From positions 24,142,560-24,206,559 of the forward strand of contig NC_134027.1 in the NCBI RefSeq assembly GCF_964204645.1: a stretch of DNA of 64,000 bases, given 5' to 3'. The DNA is from Tubulanus polymorphus (Eukaryota; Animalia; Nemertea). The position numbers were made by a program, and so were the translations under genes. Shown piece by piece: positions 11,057-46,247 of the stretch (position 1 is the stretch's first letter; every line of letters starts with the position of its first letter). The notes under the pieces are model-generated. The model had not been told where the DNA came from. It was given only the letters and a program-made list of their open reading frames with translations, and made no database searches.

Positions 11057-11331
11057 CTTGCAACCCGAGTAAATGCTACGCGACCGGTCGTGGTATCCAG
11101 CCGAAAGGTATCCGCGTGCGCGACGTCGCCGACTTCAAGGTGCACACAGAGGGCGCCGGTAATGCCGAGGTCAAGGTCATCGTACTGGGACCGGGAGGCT
11201 CGCACGAGAAGGTGAAGGTGAAGAAGGTCGATGTCTGCACGTACGAATGCGAATACATCCCGCTGAAACCTGGAAAGTACGTCGTTACGGTGCAGTTCGG
11301 TGGACAGGATATTCCTAAATCACCATTCAAG
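11057..11331 (+). CDS. FLN: Filamin exon, Ig3-equivalent
   Basis: ttacAG|cttgc...aag|GTacag; CNPSKCYATGRGIQPKGIRVRDVADFKV...DIPKSPFK. Confidence 0.95.
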
Positions 11332-11880
11332 GTACAGTATCCTCAGAGGTTTGGGTTGGTTCTACAGGACTGGGTATTTAGGTGGGTTCACCATTCAAGG
11401 TACAGTATCCTTAAGAGGTTTGGGTTGGTTCTACAGGACTGGGTATTTAGGTGGGTTCACCATTCAAGGTACAGTATCCTCAGAGGTTTGGGTTGGTTCG
11501 ACAGGACTGGGTATTTAGGTGGGTTTACCATTCAAGGTACAGTATCCTTAAGAGGTTTGGGTTGGTTCTACAGGACTGGGTATTTAGGTGGGTTCACCAT
11601 TCAAGGTACAGTATCCTTAAGAGGTTTGGGTTGGTATTACAGGACTGGGTATTTAAGTGGGTTCACCATTCAAGGTACAGTATCCTCAGAGGTTCGGATT
11701 GGTTCTGCAGGACTGGGTATTTAAGTGGGTTCACCATTCAAGGTACAGTATCCTCAGAGGTTTGGGTTGGTTCTACAGGACTGGGTATTTAGGTGGGTTC
11801 TCCATTCAAGGTACAGCATCCTCAGGGGTTTGGGTTGGTTCTATATAGGACTTGGCATTTAGCTGGACTCACCATTCAAG
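11321..11880 (+). repeat. 68-69 bp tandem repeat (~8 copies) containing the exon end and splice donor
   Basis: caccattcaaggtacagtatcctcagaggtttgggttggttctacaggactgggtatttaggtgggtt repeated. Confidence 0.95.
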
Positions 11881-13111
11881 CTGCAGTAAGGTATGCAAGG
11901 CGCATTGGGGTTAGGGCTAGTTTTGTATATCAACTTCAGTTGCTGCTAATGTAAATATAGAAAATTGAAGTCAGTTCAGATTTTACAGTTATATGGATTG
12001 AAATAGAAAATATGTTATATTTTCCGGAATATGACCAGCTGTTATATTGGTGACATGTGTCGTCCATCCGGTTACGGGCGGTTCATCAAAGTATTCAATC
12101 CTTAGAAACCTACGGCATCTGGATTGAGAACATGTTTATACATAGATTGAACCTACATCAAGCTTTAAGTCAAAATGAAAACAGTCAAACCAGATTAAGC
12201 AGGTTTGACCGTAGTATTTGAGCCAAATAAGGGACTTTTTTCCTTGTTAGTGTATAAAGCCGTGATGGCCGGGTTCAAACGTGTATGTCTCCTCTATAAA
12301 GCCATTGAGGGGCAGCTCAACCACCCAGCTACTGCTGATTTCTAACTTCGAACACAAAGGTAATATGAAATAACTTCATACGTCTTATCGGCAGACTTAG
12401 AAACAACCCGCAGCGTCAGAAATCTAGTTATTATTGGACTCTAAATCATCTGAAATGATAACAATAAGCTTGAAAAACATCAGCTGAAACAATAGATATG
12501 AATCTCGTAAGAAAGCGGGTATTATCATATCGCTACCTGAGATCTTTTTTCGAGTCAGATTTATTCATGTTTTTTTAAACGTACATCGTTGATCTCGTTA
12601 CACGGACCTCACATGGCGCGTTACCTTTTTCCTACTCGCACCGATCCAGACAATACAAAGATATAAAAATACATATTTGCGAATTTGATACGCATCGTCT
12701 GTAACTTTATCTGAAAGCATTTGTTTGAAATGTTCGCACGTATTTTTTCCCATGGTTTCCACGCGTTGTTATACGACGATTGAAGTTATTTATGATTTCG
12801 ACGTGGGTTTCATTGACCGGTTTTAGCTTTGATTCATGGGGTACTAAAACACGATCCAGTTTCATAGTTCCCTTGGTTGAAATTTGACTAGCGATAAAAT
12901 ATTGAAAATGAACTAGACTCTGATTGACGCTTATCTCTTGGAGGTATGCGTATTTCATGGCATTAGGGACAGGGATGTGTCATTATCATGATGAATTGGA
13001 GTAAGCAGATTTTTAAAATATTGCCAGGCGGGGCACGCAATAATTCCAGGCAATCGACTCCTGCATAAATAAAGTACACACAGTATGGTGTTATTTGAGT
13101 TTCAACACGAA

Positions 13112-26267: not shown

Positions 26268-26512
26268 AGGGTCTCGAAGAGTACGTCGTCGTCGGGCAAG
26301 AGTCCGTCCTGACGATCAACACGTCCGAAGCCGGTCAAGGTCAGATCAACTGCCACATCCGTAACCCGGTCGGACAGGAAGCGGACATCGACATCGAAGA
26401 CAACGGCGACGGAACCGTGTCGATCTTCTACACGCCGTTAACGCAGGGCGCGTACACTATCAACATCAAGTTCGGCGGTGAGTCCGTACCGCAGGGAACC
26501 TTCGTTCAACAG
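26268..26512 (+). CDS. FLN: Filamin exon, Ig15-equivalent
   Basis: tttcAG|agggtc...cag|GTatgg; VGQESVLTINTSEAGQG...DGTVSIFYTP. Confidence 0.95.
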
Positions 26513-37171: not shown

Positions 37172-37210
37172 GCCGTACCGCAAGCAGAATATGACCGTTT
37201 GGCGCCGCTG
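37172..37210 (+). CDS. FLN: Filamin 39-nt hinge-1 exon (AVPQAEYDRLAPL), phase 0-0
   Basis: cttaac...tttcAG|gccgta...ctg|GTAAGT; in frame between 26512 and 37786. Confidence 0.8.
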
Positions 37211-37785: not shown

Positions 37786-37930
37786 TCTGGTCCTCTCCCC
37801 GACGAAGAGATCATCTCCGCTGAACAAACTACACGCGCGCACGCAGCCCCGGCCGAGCCCAGTTACCCCGGTGGATACAGACCTGTCGATTTCTGTTTAC
37901 CCGTTGGTCCCGAATTCAATAAAGTATCAG
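37786..37930 (+). CDS. FLN: Filamin exon, hinge 1 and start of Ig16
   Basis: cgacAG|tctggt...tcag|GTacgt; SGPLPDEEIISAEQ...YRPVDFCLPV. Confidence 0.88.
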
Positions 37931-38696: not shown

Positions 38697-38837
38697 CAAA
38701 GATCAAAATGCCGTCTGGTGAAACCATCGAGCCGAAAATTGAAGATAACAAGGACGGAACGGTGACCGTTCGTTTCACCCCGAGTGAAGTCGGACAACAC
38801 GATCTAACCGTCAAATATAACGACACACCGATTCAAG
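38697..38837 (+). CDS. FLN: Filamin exon, Ig16-equivalent
   Basis: ttgcAG|caaag...caag|GTaaga; KMPSGETIEPKIEDNKDGTVTVRFTP. Confidence 0.95.
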
Positions 38838-40317: not shown

Positions 40318-40560
40318 AGCACTCATTCGGAACGAATCGGTTCTTCATCTACAAATGTGGTGAAGAAATCTTCTACGGTTGAAGTCATCGAAACGAAGTT
40401 CGACTTCGAGTCTACTCAACCACAGAGTCGCAGATTTTTCAGTCCTGATAAAAGTGTCCGTAATCCTTATTTTGAGAGATATTCAAGTCATTCGAGACCT
40501 GAAAAGTCATCTTTCACATTTACGGAGACGAAATCAAGCTCTCAGGATATTCTTAGTTGA
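40318..40560 (+). pseudogene. Degenerate upstream duplicate of part of the giant exon
   Basis: STHSERIGSSSTNVVKKSSTVEVIETKFDFESTQP...YFERYSSHSRPEKSS matches STRTERTGSSSLNAAERSSTVEVIESKSDFESTRP... at ~41533-41790; stop at 40558. Confidence 0.7.
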
Positions 40561-40695
40561 TTTCGATTATTTCGTCAGTTTTCGAAATTTTTCGCTATTA
40601 TTTCGAAATTTCGAGACCTTTTCTCTTCGGACGAACTCGGGCTATTGAATCTTTAATCAACTTTTTCTCGAAAGATTGAAAGCTCGAGATCGACC

Positions 40696-43600
40696 ATGAG
40701 TTACTACGAGAGGTATGTTTCACGAGGTGATAGAGGTACGATGGGGAGTTCGTCGGTGTACAACGCATCGCACGGCGGTCGAGCGACGAATTTCGAAATT
40801 TCCCGCAACGATCGAAATTCCGATTTACGTCTGACGAACGGTATTAATGAAAGTTCGGAAAGGTCAACGCTTACCGATAGATATCAAACGGGAAAGAGTT
40901 ACCATTCGTCGTCCGGATTCGAGACCGGAATCGAGACCGGATCGGACATTACCGCCGGCTCGAGCCTCGGTGTCCAGTCGCTAGTGAAAACCGCGTCGAG
41001 AAGTTCGAGTCCCGTTCCGGCCGGCAGTCGCATCATAAAAATCAAAGAACGGACGACGACGTACAGCGTTCCGGACTCGAACTCCGGCGCGGAAAAAACC
41101 GAAGACGTCACCGAGATCGTCGACGTAAAGAGTAAACCGGCCGCATACGCGAATTCCGGTTCGTCGGGTTATCTAACGTCGAGGAGGATGTTGAGTCCGG
41201 AAAGAAGTCCGTCGTCGTATCTGGAGAGGTACGCGTCGTCGTCCTATAACGGCGAGAGTTCACCGTCGAGATACAACCACAGCTCCGGTTACGTACGCTC
41301 CAATTATGAAAGTAAGTCGTCTGCTGTGGCGAGTCCAGTAACCTCGACAACATCGACAGAAACAACCATGTCTAGAAGTTGGGAGACCGGGGTCAGTGGT
41401 GGCAGTGCTGCTGCTGGGCACTCGTATCTGGAAAGGTATTCCAGTCCGGCGAGGTCTTCAACCGAAGTGACCGTGACTGAAACAACGTCCGGTCTCGAGT
41501 CGGCCCGACCGACTGAAACCGCTTCAACTTCTAGCACTCGTACGGAAAGAACTGGTTCCTCATCTCTGAACGCGGCGGAGCGATCTTCGACGGTTGAAGT
41601 CATCGAAAGCAAGTCCGACTTTGAGTCGACTCGACCGCTTTCGAGTAATTCATCGGAGTCGCGGCGTTTGAGTCCCGAAATAAGCGGCAGTTCGTATCTG
41701 GAGCGATATTCGAGAAGTCACAGCCCGGAAAAGAAGTCGTCGACTGTCGTAGTTACGGAGAAGAAATCGACCTTGGAGTCGACTCAACCGAGGCAATCGA
41801 ATTATTTCGAGGGACGGACTTTGAGTAGTGATAGAAGTGGCGGTAGTTCTTATCTTGAAAGATATTCAAGTCCTGAAGAATCAACTTTCACAGTTACGGA
41901 GACAAAGTCAACCTTAGAGTCGACTCAACCACAGTCGAGTTATTCGGAGTCACGGATTTTGAATCCTGAAAAGTCGTCGACTGTAACCGTTACCGAAACC
42001 CGGTCCACCGGTGACGACGTGAAACCTCTTCGTTCGGAGTTCAGTTATTCAGCACCAGGTGGCGCTGCTCGCGCCGAAAAGTCGGAAATCTCATCGGTGA
42101 CAGAATCAACGAATCGTAGGATCGGTTATCTCGCATCGAGGGCGTTTAGTCCGACGAGAAGTTCGTATCTGGATCGATACTCGATTCACAGCCCGATTAC
42201 GAATTCTTCTTCGACCGTCGAAGTCGTGGAAACAAAACGAGACACGACGAATTTGAATCCGACTGAATCGGAAACGCGGTCGGTTACCGAATCGACGAAA
42301 CCGATTCAGGCGTATTCGTCTCGTAGTTTGAGTCCGAGAAGTTGGTATCAGCAGCGCTTTTCGAGAAACCCGATGGAATCGTCAACATTCGCCGAGAGTT
42401 CGTCCAATTTCAATTCATCTTTATTATCGGAGCAATCGACGGCGGAACAGCCGGAAAGATCATCGACTTTCACACTTACCGAGACAGAATCCACTGTAGA
42501 GTCGACTCCACAGCAGTCGAGTTATTTGGAGTCACGAACTTCGAGTCCTGAAAGAGGAGGCAGTTCTTATCTGGAGCGCTATTCAAGAAGTCAGAGTCCT
42601 GAAAAGTCGTCAACTCTAACAGTTATGGAAACAAAATCCACTGTAGAGTCGACTCCACAGCAGTCGAGTTATTTGGAGTCACGGACTTTGAGTCCTGAAA
42701 GAGGAAGCAGTTCTTATCTGGAGCGCTATTCAAGAAGTCGGAGTCCTGAAAAGTCGTCAACTCTAACAGTTACGGAAACAAATTCCACTGTAGAGTCGAC
42801 TCCACAGCAGTCGAGTTATTTGGAGTCACGGACTTTGAGTCCTGAAAGAGGAGGCAGTTCTTATCTGGAGCGCTATTCAAGAAGTCGGAGTCCTGAAAAG
42901 TCGTCGACTATAACAGTTACGGAAACAAAATCCACTGTAGAGTCGACTCCACAGCAGTCAAGTTATTTGGAGTCACGGACTCTGAGTCCTGAAAGAGGAG
43001 GCAGTTCTTATCTGGAGCGTTATTCAAGAAGTCAGACTCCTGAAAAGTCGTCAACTATAACAGTTACGGAAACTAAATCCACTGTAGAGTCGACTCCACA
43101 GCAGTCGAGTTACTTGGAGTCAGGGGCTTTGAGTCCTACTACTACAAGCGGCAGATCATATCTCGAAAGATTTTCAAGTCCCCAAAGGTCGTCGACTTTA
43201 ACCGTTACGGAGAAAACTTCGAATACGGAATTGGAAGAACCTGCTCGGGCTGGTTACCCGGAGGCACGTGGGCTTAGGGCGACTGGAAGTCCAGCTCTTT
43301 CAGATACAATCGTTACGGAAGCAACAATAGAATCAAAACCGCCGATTTCTTATGTGGATAGATATTACAGGCGAGCACCGGAACATCTCATAGTGGAAAA
43401 GAAAACCCTGACAGAGTCTCCAGTACACCTCGTTGCGGAGAAGGAAACAGTAACAGAGTCTCTGGAGCACCTGGTTGTGGAAAAGACGACCCCGGTAACA
43501 GAGTCTCCGGAGCACCTGGTCGTGGAGAAGACAACTGCGACTGAGTCTCCACAATACCTCATCGTAGAAGAGACAACCACAGTAACAGAGTCTCCTCGTA

Positions 43601-45586
43601 ACATCAGCCCATCGTTTACTAACACGACTGAATCGACCTTGACCTCGTACGACTTGACGGGATCTCGAAGCGGAGAACGAACTCCGGTTAAACCGGAGCC
43701 CTCGGTTTCGTCGTACTCGCAATCGTCCGACATCAGCTCCGACGCTCCGATCAACGAGATACAACGGATTCGCGAAACCGAAACGCGAACCATCACCGAA
43801 GAGCGTAAGGATTTCCTCACGCCCGATTACGTGCCGTCAAGCGGTAGGAAAATTTACACTGTTAACAGGAGCCCGAGTCCAGCAGTAGCCGATCGAGTCA
43901 CCGTGGAACAGAGGACACGAGCTGTTAGTCCGCAAGTTCTCAGAGTGCGCGGCCGCGAACAGAAAAAACAACGCAGTCCAAAACTCATTCGAGTACATCG
44001 CAGTCCAAGTCCTAATGTTGTTAGGGTACATCGCGGTCCGAGTCCAAATGTGGTCAGGATACACCGCAGTCCTAGCCCAGTTATAGTGCATCGTAGTCCT
44101 AGTCCTAATGTGGTTAAGGTTCATGGTGGTCAAAGTCCTAAAGTAGTTAGGGTGCATCGCAGTCCAAGTCCGGTTATAGTGCATCGTAGTCCTAGTCCTA
44201 ATGTGGTTAGGGTTCATCGTGGTCCAAGTCCTAAAGTAGTTAGGGTGCATCGCAGTCCAAGTCCGGTTAAAGTGCATCGTAGTCCTAGTCCTAATGTGGT
44301 TAGGGTAAATCGCAGTCCAAGTCCAAAAGTAGTCAGGGTACATCCCAAGCCAAGTCCAATCAGGGTGCATCGCAGTCCAAGTCCGATCAAGGTTCATCGC
44401 AGTCCGAGTCCAAATGTGGTTCGGTTACATCGTAGTCCGAGTCCAAGAGCGGAAAGAAAAGTCATTCAAGTCCAACAGCATTCCGAACCTCTTCACGTGG
44501 CATCGGAAAATATTTTACAAGCGCAGCGAAGTCCGAAAATAGTACACGTACAAAAGCAGGACGTGAGCCCGGCGAGAACGCGAAAACACAAACATAAAAA
44601 ACATCGTAAAGAAAAGAAAATATTCGCGGTTCATCGATCGAGGTGGAATGAACCCGCGGTTCTAGCGGACGACGGATCGACGGTCGAAGAGAAAATAGTA
44701 CAAATACGATATAAAGACGAACCGGACGTCGTGAAGTCAGAGGTGAGGAGAGTGCGACGCGTAGAACCGGCGGTTTTTACAACGGTCGCCGAGCCGGTTG
44801 TACATCAGCTGAACGGTGAACCCGGGGTCGTGTTTAGCGGCGCACCGGGACGAGTTCATTTACAGAGAAGCGTAACGCCGGTGAATTCAGGTCACAGAGT
44901 CATCCGTATTCATCGCACGCCCGAAGCAACGCTGTCGACTCGAAGAGGAATCGACGTGCAGTCCGCGCCATCTCCGAATTTTTCGGAATTTCAGCATCGC
45001 TTTGTTACGACGCAACGGCGGATCGAGCCGCAGCAGGTCGTGCAGGTCGAACGAAGCGTCAGCTCGCAACAACCGCAGCAGGTCGTGCAGGTCGAACGAA
45101 GCGTCAGCTCGCAACATCCGCAGCAGGTCGTGCAGGTTGAACGTAGCGTCGGCTCGCAACAACAACAACCTGTCGTGCGGGTCGAACGAAGCGTCAGCTC
45201 GCAACAACAACAACCGGTCGTGCGGGTCGAACGAAGCGTCAGCTCGCAACAACAACAACCGGTCGGCATCATGAAACAAGATGCAGTAATTCCGAAAACA
45301 GAACACGCGAAACTGGAAACGAGCACGAAGGAGTCTCACCACCACCGCGTTATGACTACGTCTACCGCCGCCGTATCGCCGTCTCCGTCCAACAGAGGGC
45401 GCAGTCCGTTCCGTTGGAAGAAAAAGAAGAAAAACAAGACGAAAAACGACCACAAACGACGCAGAGAGTTCATCGAAGAATACGCGTTCACTAATAGTAC
45501 GAGCGCCGATAACGGCGTGAAAAAATATTCAGCGATGAATAGCTACGTGCCTAAAGCTACTGCTGGGTTAGATAGCCCGCTTAAAG
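40696..45586 (+). CDS. FLN: Giant alternative first coding exon of filamin (1630 codons, low-complexity, repetitive)
   Basis: 4.9-kb uninterrupted ORF from accATGa; aaag|GTatat donor 20 nt before the ORF end, phase 1, matching the acceptor at 46119; in-frame stop upstream at 40654. Confidence 0.78.
42454..43210 (+). repeat. Coding 147-bp (49-aa) tandem repeat, about 5 copies
   Basis: tccactgtagagtcgactccacag at 42490, 42637, 42784, 42931, 43078. Confidence 0.95.
43972..44445 (+). repeat. Coding VHRSPSP(N/K)VVR repeats
   Basis: More than 15 short units in the ORF translation. Confidence 0.92.
45028..45265 (+). repeat. Coding QQVVQVERSVSSQQ repeats, about 5 copies
   Basis: gtcgtgcaggtcgaacgaagcgtcagctcgcaacaa repeated. 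Confidence 0.92.
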
Positions 45587-45679
45587 GTATATTCTATATA
45601 CATTAATGATACAGGCTCCGGCTATAAGCTATTTTTAACTGCTAGTTGAACCCCAGCGCGGAGTTGGACGGTTGACCGA

Positions 45680-45940
45680 ATTGGTCTTTAAGATTGTTTT
45701 TAGAACTAGAATGAGCTTAGACCGGTTTATATATGTTAGATTGGTAATAGAACCAAAATGAGCTTAGACCGGTCTTAAGTTGTTAGATTGGCTTTAGAAC
45801 CAAAATGAGCTTAGACTGGTCTTAAGTTGTCAGATTTTCTCTAGATCTGACATGAGCTTAGAAAGGTCTTCAGGTGTTAGATCTGCTTTAGAACCAAAAT
45901 GGGCTCAGACTTGGCTTAAATTTTTAGATTGCCTATGAAA
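45680..45940. repeat. ~47-bp tandem repeat family copy
   Basis: agaaccaaaatgagcttagac.ggtcttaagttgttagattgg repeated about 5 times. Confidence 0.85.
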
Positions 45941-46118
45941 CTCATTGTCTTAAAGGCTATGAAATTGGTCCCCAGTTTTCGTCATTACAAATTTTCTGTT
46001 CAGAAAGTATCCTTGTTCATTTGAAGTAGCCCCTTGAAAATTCCTATATTCACAGTGATAAAGCAATATCGAAGACAAATTAATTAAATGTTGGCCATCT
46101 TGTTTTTGTATATTACAG

Positions 46119-46247
46119 GTAGCCCGTTCAAGTTCCACGTGGATGCCGTTGATAGTGGATATGTAACCGCGTACGGTCCTGGTTTGAGTCATGGTATGGC
46201 TGGAGAGCCTGCCACCTTCAGTATCAACACTAAACATGCTGGACAAG
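46119..46247 (+). CDS. FLN: Filamin exon, Ig16 end / Ig17 start
   Basis: ttacAG|gtagcc...caag|GTatgt; GSPFKFHVDAVDSGYVTAYGPGLSHG. Confidence 0.95.

Follow-up and report, generated by a model that had tools for sequence, protein, structure and literature searches.

Short and Extended Filamins

Filamins that begin at an internal start and lack the actin-binding domain are a known kind, described from fly and worm. Drosophila FLN90 lacks the domain, is made from its own internal promoter (PMC5173320, PMC5011733, PMC11221683), and organizes the postsynaptic muscle membrane (PMC5173320). The fly forms CherA and CherB, of 90–100 kDa, consist of the last 8 repeats and localize to the Z-disc without actin binding, a localization for which CherA suffices (PMC5521747). 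In Caenorhabditis elegans, FLN-1C comprises 836 amino acids (aa) and the last 9 repeats, arises from an alternate start, and has a transcript demonstrated by complementary DNA (PMC3143143). The present locus lies in a stretch of 64,000 nucleotides (nt) from the nemertean Tubulanus polymorphus (contig NC_134027.1, positions 24,142,560 to 24,206,559; hereafter the window), where an intron of a filamin gene holds a 1636-codon open reading frame (ORF) that is shaped by selection on its protein. From its sequence, we consider this ORF, with moderate confidence, to be an alternative first coding exon, spliced after position 45586 onto the filamin exon at 46119. Immunoglobulin-like (Ig) repeats are called Ig16 and so forth after the human filamin numbering.

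The predicted isoform would resemble the cheerio forms FLN90/Cher90/CherA-B in an internal start, a missing actin-binding domain, and ~8 retained C-terminal Ig repeats, and it would share with FLN-1C the missing domain and an alternate transcription start. Unlike the cheerio short forms, which measure 90–100 kDa and have a short front, it would span ~2420 aa (1630, plus 793 residues, the length of the filamin of the nemertean Lineus beyond the junction), 1630 of them unique, and would fall outside the small size and short front of internal-promoter filamins; the worm form, too, differs in having no long disordered front. Arthropod models of short filamins (P0081, P0082, P0086, P0095) join one exon earlier, keep most of Ig16, and carry ~80–185 unique residues, whereas the join predicted here falls at the last Ig16 strand.

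Large low-complexity regions at the boundary of rod 1 and rod 2 provide the second comparison. Hinge-1 inserts measure 425 aa in Lineus filamin-A-like X1–X5 and X8 (XP_064632234–238, 241) and 274–933 aa, varying between isoforms, in Branchiostoma filamins. One metagenome contig (L007:6032–8425) encodes a ~750-aa RKGS-repeat directly before Ig16 with shorter inserts of this kind upstream, and another (L011) looks much the same. The ORF shares with these inserts of invertebrate filamins their large extent, their low complexity, and the rod 1/rod 2 boundary. However, the inserts are internal, precede an intact Ig16, are unrelated in sequence (acidic, coiled-coil-like, or RKGS), and are 2–4x shorter; the ORF lies not between Ig15 and an intact Ig16 but behind the middle exon of Ig16. 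Long filamins of bivalves, snails, and cnidarians have extra repeats instead of inserts, and five snail and clam proteins (P0121, P0133, P0134, P0136, P0137) reach 3765–4005 aa with 36–38 repeats, the extras being in rod 1.

Outside the filamins, exon 15e of Drosophila Zasp52 is a disordered alternative exon that stabilizes Zasp52 at the Z-disc (PMC13521563). The likeness is that of a long, disordered alternative exon in a muscle scaffold, a muscle role being a proposal here; the gene is a different one, and exon 15e is internal and has a tested function. The preliminary description of this DNA had found the architecture unfamiliar from vertebrate filamins. That judgment stands for the size and the place of the added region, which are new, and does not extend to internal-start filamins without an actin-binding domain, which fly and worm possess.

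A Giant Reading Frame between Two Ig16 Exons

The frame runs on the forward strand from stop to stop over 1649 codons (40657–45606), behind an in-frame stop at 40654, and from the ATG at 40696 to the stop at 45606 it encodes 1636 aa; the remaining five frames over the same stretch contain 52–91 stops apiece. It sits inside a filamin intron between the Ig16 exons 38697–38837 and 46119–46247. The preliminary description had reported this uninterrupted frame with its upstream stop, its position between two Ig16 exons, and its lack of filamin, reverse transcriptase, or transposase motifs. Recomputation returned the same coordinates, Pfam Filamin and Lineus filamin matches identified the flanking exons, and the translation matched no Pfam family at E≤1. 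Tandem arrays make up 1563 nt, about a third, of the ORF; for the 1109 codons outside them, the chance of containing zero stops is ~1e-23. Sequencing depth in run X1 is 31–54 over the ORF as against thousands at intronic repeats, and the ORF is therefore single-copy.

The predicted giant exon (Table 1) is rich in Ser, Thr, Arg, Val, Glu, and Pro and devoid of Cys and of hydrophobic segments. Its 1630 residues include 75 SP/TP sites, 12 RSPSP motifs, and 11 copies of SY(L/V)(E/D)R, and change in charge from near neutral to acidic (residues 1–1060) to basic (residues 1061–1630, net +67). FoldIndex predicts disorder for 84% of its 51-residue windows, compared with 15% in the Lineus Ig17–24 control. 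A single-sequence AlphaFold model of residues 591–1630 has a predicted local distance difference test score (pLDDT) of 31.7, which fits disorder but is equally typical of input without an alignment.

Upstream of the ORF lies a detached copy of its repeat unit (40318–40557), which perhaps is a relic of a longer exon. From this copy, no usable in-phase donor leads into the ORF or onto 46119. Compared with a copy in the ORF it has a synonymous excess of 16 to 14, and four of its five differences in X1 replace residues.

Selection on the Reading Frame

The differences among repeat copies within the ORF fall preferentially at third codon positions. Compared at fixed DNA offsets, with no protein alignment, 76 of 139 differences do so (p=2e-7), although the arrays counted overlap in part and the counts are not fully independent; in five intronic arrays that served as the control, the figure is 107 of 306. 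Alignment at the protein level gives synonymous to replacement counts of 15/4, 11/7, 9/7, 7/6, and 14/9 for the old 49-aa units (expected 0.29–0.31), and 27 synonymous to 13 replacement codons for the RVHRSPSP units (expected 0.29).

Variation among animals was read from three of four runs; these three belong to one study and behave as genomic DNA from other individuals. The three indels listed within the ORF (12 nt, 5+4 nt taken as one event, and 3 nt) all preserve the frame, as against 3 of 17 listed intronic indels with lengths in multiples of three (Fisher p=0.018). The 38 listed ORF substitutions alter 33 codons, 15 synonymously and 18 with replacement, and create no stop. Because third positions are favored among repeat copies, indels keep the frame, and the stop-free run is long, we conclude that this frame is shaped by selection on its protein product. 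CpG is undepleted in the window, and the CpG profile is uninformative.

These observations bear on the possibility that the frame is dead or never expressed, or that a mobile-element or viral ORF was held open by repeat expansion. The tandem repeats that fill about a third of the ORF and the detached copy upstream would suit such an origin. Against it stand single-copy depth, the missing Pfam family, the third-position bias, the frame-keeping indels, and a neutral simulation in which, under 38 substitutions and 3 indels, the frame survives in 0.1% of 4000 runs; we regard this explanation as very improbable. A transposon or viral ORF as such was considered and rejected, the locus being single-copy rather than multi-copy and its translation having no reverse transcriptase, integrase, or transposase family in Pfam.

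The 3′ End and the Predicted Filamin Junction

The window's own filamin exons supplied 23 donors and 21 acceptors for splice-site matrices. With these, the donor after 45586 scores 8.4 bits, within the leave-one-out range of the filamin donors (2.8–12.4), and ranks first among the 130 phase-1 GTs of the ORF, 20 nt before the stop. Both this donor and the acceptor at 46119 are in phase 1, and the joined peptide reads ...DSPLK-GSPFKFHV, in agreement with the phases and the peptide given in the preliminary description. Across the donor, the GC content steps from 0.47 to 0.32, as it does at most true donors. Splicing from 45586 to 46119, onto the last Ig16 strand and Ig17–24, is the simplest and most likely reading of this arrangement, as far as sequence can tell.

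Alternatively, the ORF could be an independent gene of one exon, nested within the filamin gene in the same orientation, its coding sequence closing at the stop 45606 and the donor arising by chance. It is the frame, and not the splice, that bears the signs of selection, and the ORF has an ATG and a stop of its own. Donors that score like 45586 occur 5 times in 11.3 kb of intron sequence, and an ATTAAA at 46083 could serve as a poly(A) signal. For a nested gene, however, it would be a coincidence that the best of 130 in-phase donors falls in the final 20 nt of a 4.9-kb frame (~0.4% by position, an estimate) and coincides with a GC step; between the ORF stop and 46119 there is no AATAAA, and the 3′ untranslated region (UTR) would have to span a high-copy 47-nt repeat. 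On balance, such a gene is unlikely, with perhaps a slim chance of being correct.

The 5′ End: Start Codon or Acceptor

The ATG at 40696 is preceded by ACC, in a frame in which Met accounts for only 0.6% of residues. Ahead of it, AG dinucleotides allow exon starts at 40675 (phase 0) and at 40683 and 40689 (phase 2). As the preliminary description had noted, none of these offers the phase 1 needed for a cassette after 38837, and among the 101 phase-1 AGs within the ORF the best scores 2.8, which makes such a cassette unlikely. The acceptor at 40579 (phase 0, score 5.3) was rejected for coding use, as its frame runs into the stop at 40654; it could introduce a noncoding leader only. This AG, the strongest ahead of the ORF, is contained in TCAGTT (40575–40580), an initiator-like hexamer by consensus, and 116 nt of ATG-free leader follow it.

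The acceptor at 40675 was left unweighed in the preliminary description, whose proposal of a first exon that replaces the actin-binding domain and rod 1 is upheld in part, as regards a coding-like frame that is predicted to be disordered and has an in-phase donor. Used as an acceptor, 40675 would make the ORF an internal giant exon, exclusive with hinge 1 and Ig16 and reached from the donor at 26512 or 37210. In the product, a disordered super-hinge of 1637 aa would separate the actin-binding domain and rod 1 from Ig17–24; such a protein, which may coexist with the first-exon form, would cross-link actin across an elastic spacer of great length. The site is in frame and in phase 0, like both donors, and has an AG-free zone of 57 nt, a length that 5% of the 576 intronic AGs attain and that lies within the 17–88 nt of true acceptors. 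Long low-complexity hinge-1 inserts in models from Lineus, Branchiostoma, and contig L007 offer precedents. However, its AAG is used by none of the 21 filamin acceptors here and its score is 0.2; a well-placed Met follows 7 codons on despite the rarity of this residue; and every known long insert precedes an intact Ig16. We hold an internal exon to be a minority prospect.

Two further arrangements seem improbable. In one, the ORF would be entered as a cassette within Ig16, from 38837 to a phase-1 acceptor; in the other, it would be a terminal exon reached from 26512 through 40675 and ending at the stop 45606. Weak phase-1 AGs exist for the former at 41339, 42053, 43124, and 44891 (2.3–2.8 bits), but the AG-free zone of 41339 is 3 nt, and the open, selected 5′ part of the ORF would be unexplained. 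The latter has a parallel in C. elegans FLN-1B, which binds actin and has an exon of its own (PMC3143143), but would leave the donor at 45586 unexplained.

Relatives and Observations against a First Exon

Residues 1018–1630, searched against 1.84 billion representatives, gave 32 matches, 31 on the RVHRSPSP array and 1 on VERSVSSQ; the 8 inspected proved to be unrelated low-complexity proteins and were rejected as relatives. Atlas and the PDB likewise yielded no relative of the ORF, metagenome contigs yielded none of its last 108 aa, and eleven metagenome filamin loci contain no such exon wherever the junction is covered. A literature search, outside which lay subscription journals and supplements, found no such filamin isoform described.

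Several observations weigh against the alternative first exon. At its 5′ end, the phase of 40675 fits the upstream donors, and scores no higher than 2.6 occur at 4 of the 21 true acceptors. As regards selection, the young 147-nt array has no synonymous excess (11 to 14); that among individuals, judged on the 40 listed differences of 213, is weak (15 of 33 codons, p=0.044) and fades to 8 of 21 (p=0.28) once a cluster in one tandem array is set aside; and codon usage does not separate the ORF frame (−0.17) from its alternatives (−0.10, +0.02, −0.15 to −0.18). No ORF relative appeared among 7990 candidate proteins of 899–2863 aa. A recognizable junction was present in 232 of 293 fetched proteins, of which 226 show an ordinary Ig16 and 6 are odd, and none of the 232 has a long non-filamin stretch there. 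This sample (the best 120 of 196 and the best 120 of 361 matches) is biased against few-repeat forms, and the absence is therefore weak evidence.

No transcript, junction read, or peptide for the ORF has been seen so far, and the one spliced contig available, from run X4, which joins 46117–46245 to 50320, represents the ordinary Ig16 join with the ORF skipped: of 30 loose letters at its upstream end, 23 match the end of exon 38697–38837 (by eye). Its differences (24 in 129 nt, 38 in 193 nt) leave it ~81% identical to the window exons, and for this reason it appears to derive from a paralogue or from a different organism, although run X4 and the DNA runs are labeled as one species. At 90% likeness X4 matched nothing in the window, and at 80% it yielded one filamin contig and nothing on the ORF, blanks that carry no information on expression.

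The Proposed Isoform and Its Role

If the ORF is a first exon, a promoter within the filamin gene would start the transcript, with or without a noncoding leader exon, and a 1630-aa front, predicted to be disordered and rich in phosphorylation sites, would be joined to the last Ig16 strand and Ig17–24. The isoform would forgo the actin-binding domain and rod 1 while retaining the repeat pairs that bind ligands and sense force. The last repeat, outside the window, presumably would mediate dimerization with itself or with full-length filamin. Judging from fly CherA/B and the disordered exon of Zasp52, such an isoform, once expressed, would probably act as a tissue-specific rod-2 scaffold in muscle attachment structures, its repeated front providing anchorage in place of actin.

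The repeats invite a more speculative proposal. Ligands of the filamin CD face are β strands with alternating hydrophobic residues (10.1101/2025.05.02.651884, PMC10164935), and predicted filamin ligands have no clear consensus (10.1101/2025.05.02.651884). The pattern S-S-T-hydrophobic-x-hydrophobic-x-E occurs 11 times in the ORF compared with a mean of 0.06 in 1000 shuffles, a contrast to be read with the pattern having been picked afterwards and the copies being paralogous; the low-confidence AlphaFold model (pLDDT 31.7) predicts strands on five copies. By eye, repeats of the PEKSSTITVTE type resemble the filamin-binding peptide of migfilin (residues 5–28; PMC4554727) in PEK...SS at the strand start. 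They differ from it in being less hydrophobic, in that the strand is followed by Glu and then by no proline, and in occurring 11 times in cis. It is conceivable, if doubtful, that this filamin carries its own ligands, at least 11 migfilin-like strands docking into the grooves of Ig17, Ig19, Ig21, and Ig23 of the same or neighboring filamins. Equally tentative is the suggestion that multivalent filamin–filamin cross-linking would thereby replace actin binding, under the control of force and of phosphorylation at the 75 SP/TP sites. Were the strands to bind the ligand grooves of filamin itself, the result would be a self-cross-linking filamin, of which we found none described.

The Host Gene and Its Exons

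The host gene is a filamin: Pfam PF00630 (Filamin) matches 3 window exons, including 38697–38837 and 46119–46247, and the window exons are collinear with residues 467–2652 of the 2816-residue, 22-repeat filamin of Lineus longissimus (tblastn), in which these two exons align to the Ig16 and the Ig16–17 part, respectively. As the matches span these residues only, the actin-binding domain and Ig24 lie outside the window. Among 243 fetched proteins that match all 11 test exons, Lineus is closest (76.8%; runner-up 72.6%), and the window and Lineus are sisters, with support of 100/100, in a tree of 29 rows that included a single nemertean and lacked any named annelid, brachiopod, or phoronid.

The predicted hinge-1 micro-exon has a donor of 12.0 bits and an AG-free zone of 105 nt, and its 13 residues look, by eye, like the hinge starts of Lineus and Capitella. 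Elsewhere in the gene, a 68-nt tandem array of 8.3 copies (11320–11888) begins at a filamin exon end, such that the donor region is repeated.

Table 1. Positions of the reading frame, its repeats, and neighboring filamin exons in the window
Feature	Position	Strand	Remarks
Ig15 filamin exon	26268–26512	+	phase-0 donor at its end
Hinge 1 micro-exon, predicted	37172–37210	+	39 nt, phase 0-0
End of filamin hinge 1 and first Ig16 exon	37786–37930	+	
Middle Ig16 exon of filamin	38697–38837	+	phase-1 donor; Pfam and Lineus match
Copy of ORF repeat unit	40318–40557	+	stop-free, 80 codons; in the ORF's frame, two stops in between
Seven in-frame codons after weak phase-0 AAG acceptor	40675–40695	+	5′ UTR or internal-exon start
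Giant coding exon, predicted	40696–45586	+	ATG to phase-1 donor, 1630 codons
~49-aa repeat family	41548–43245	+	contains the motifs SYLERY and S-S-T-hydrophobic-x-hydrophobic-x-E, each 11 times in ORF
Young 147-nt array	42472–43137	+	within the 49-aa repeat family
EHLVVEK-type repeats	43382–43595	+	45/87 nt
RVHRSPSP repeats	43992–44444	+	basic; periods 27–93 nt; 12 RSPSP
VERSVSSQ repeats	45036–45265	+	45 nt
Predicted intron start	45587–45606	+	GTATAT; frame open 6 more codons to stop
Filamin exon, last Ig16 strand and Ig17 start	46119–46247	+	shared acceptor

Implications

The finding concerns one invertebrate lineage and is a prediction at the RNA level. If the isoform is expressed, the boundary of rod 1 and rod 2, beyond taking short starts and hinge inserts, would also take a lineage-specific front of 1630 aa. 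It would be an isoform of the sort that homology-based annotation would miss, and it would provide a natural test of a force-sensing rod 2 operating without actin anchoring.

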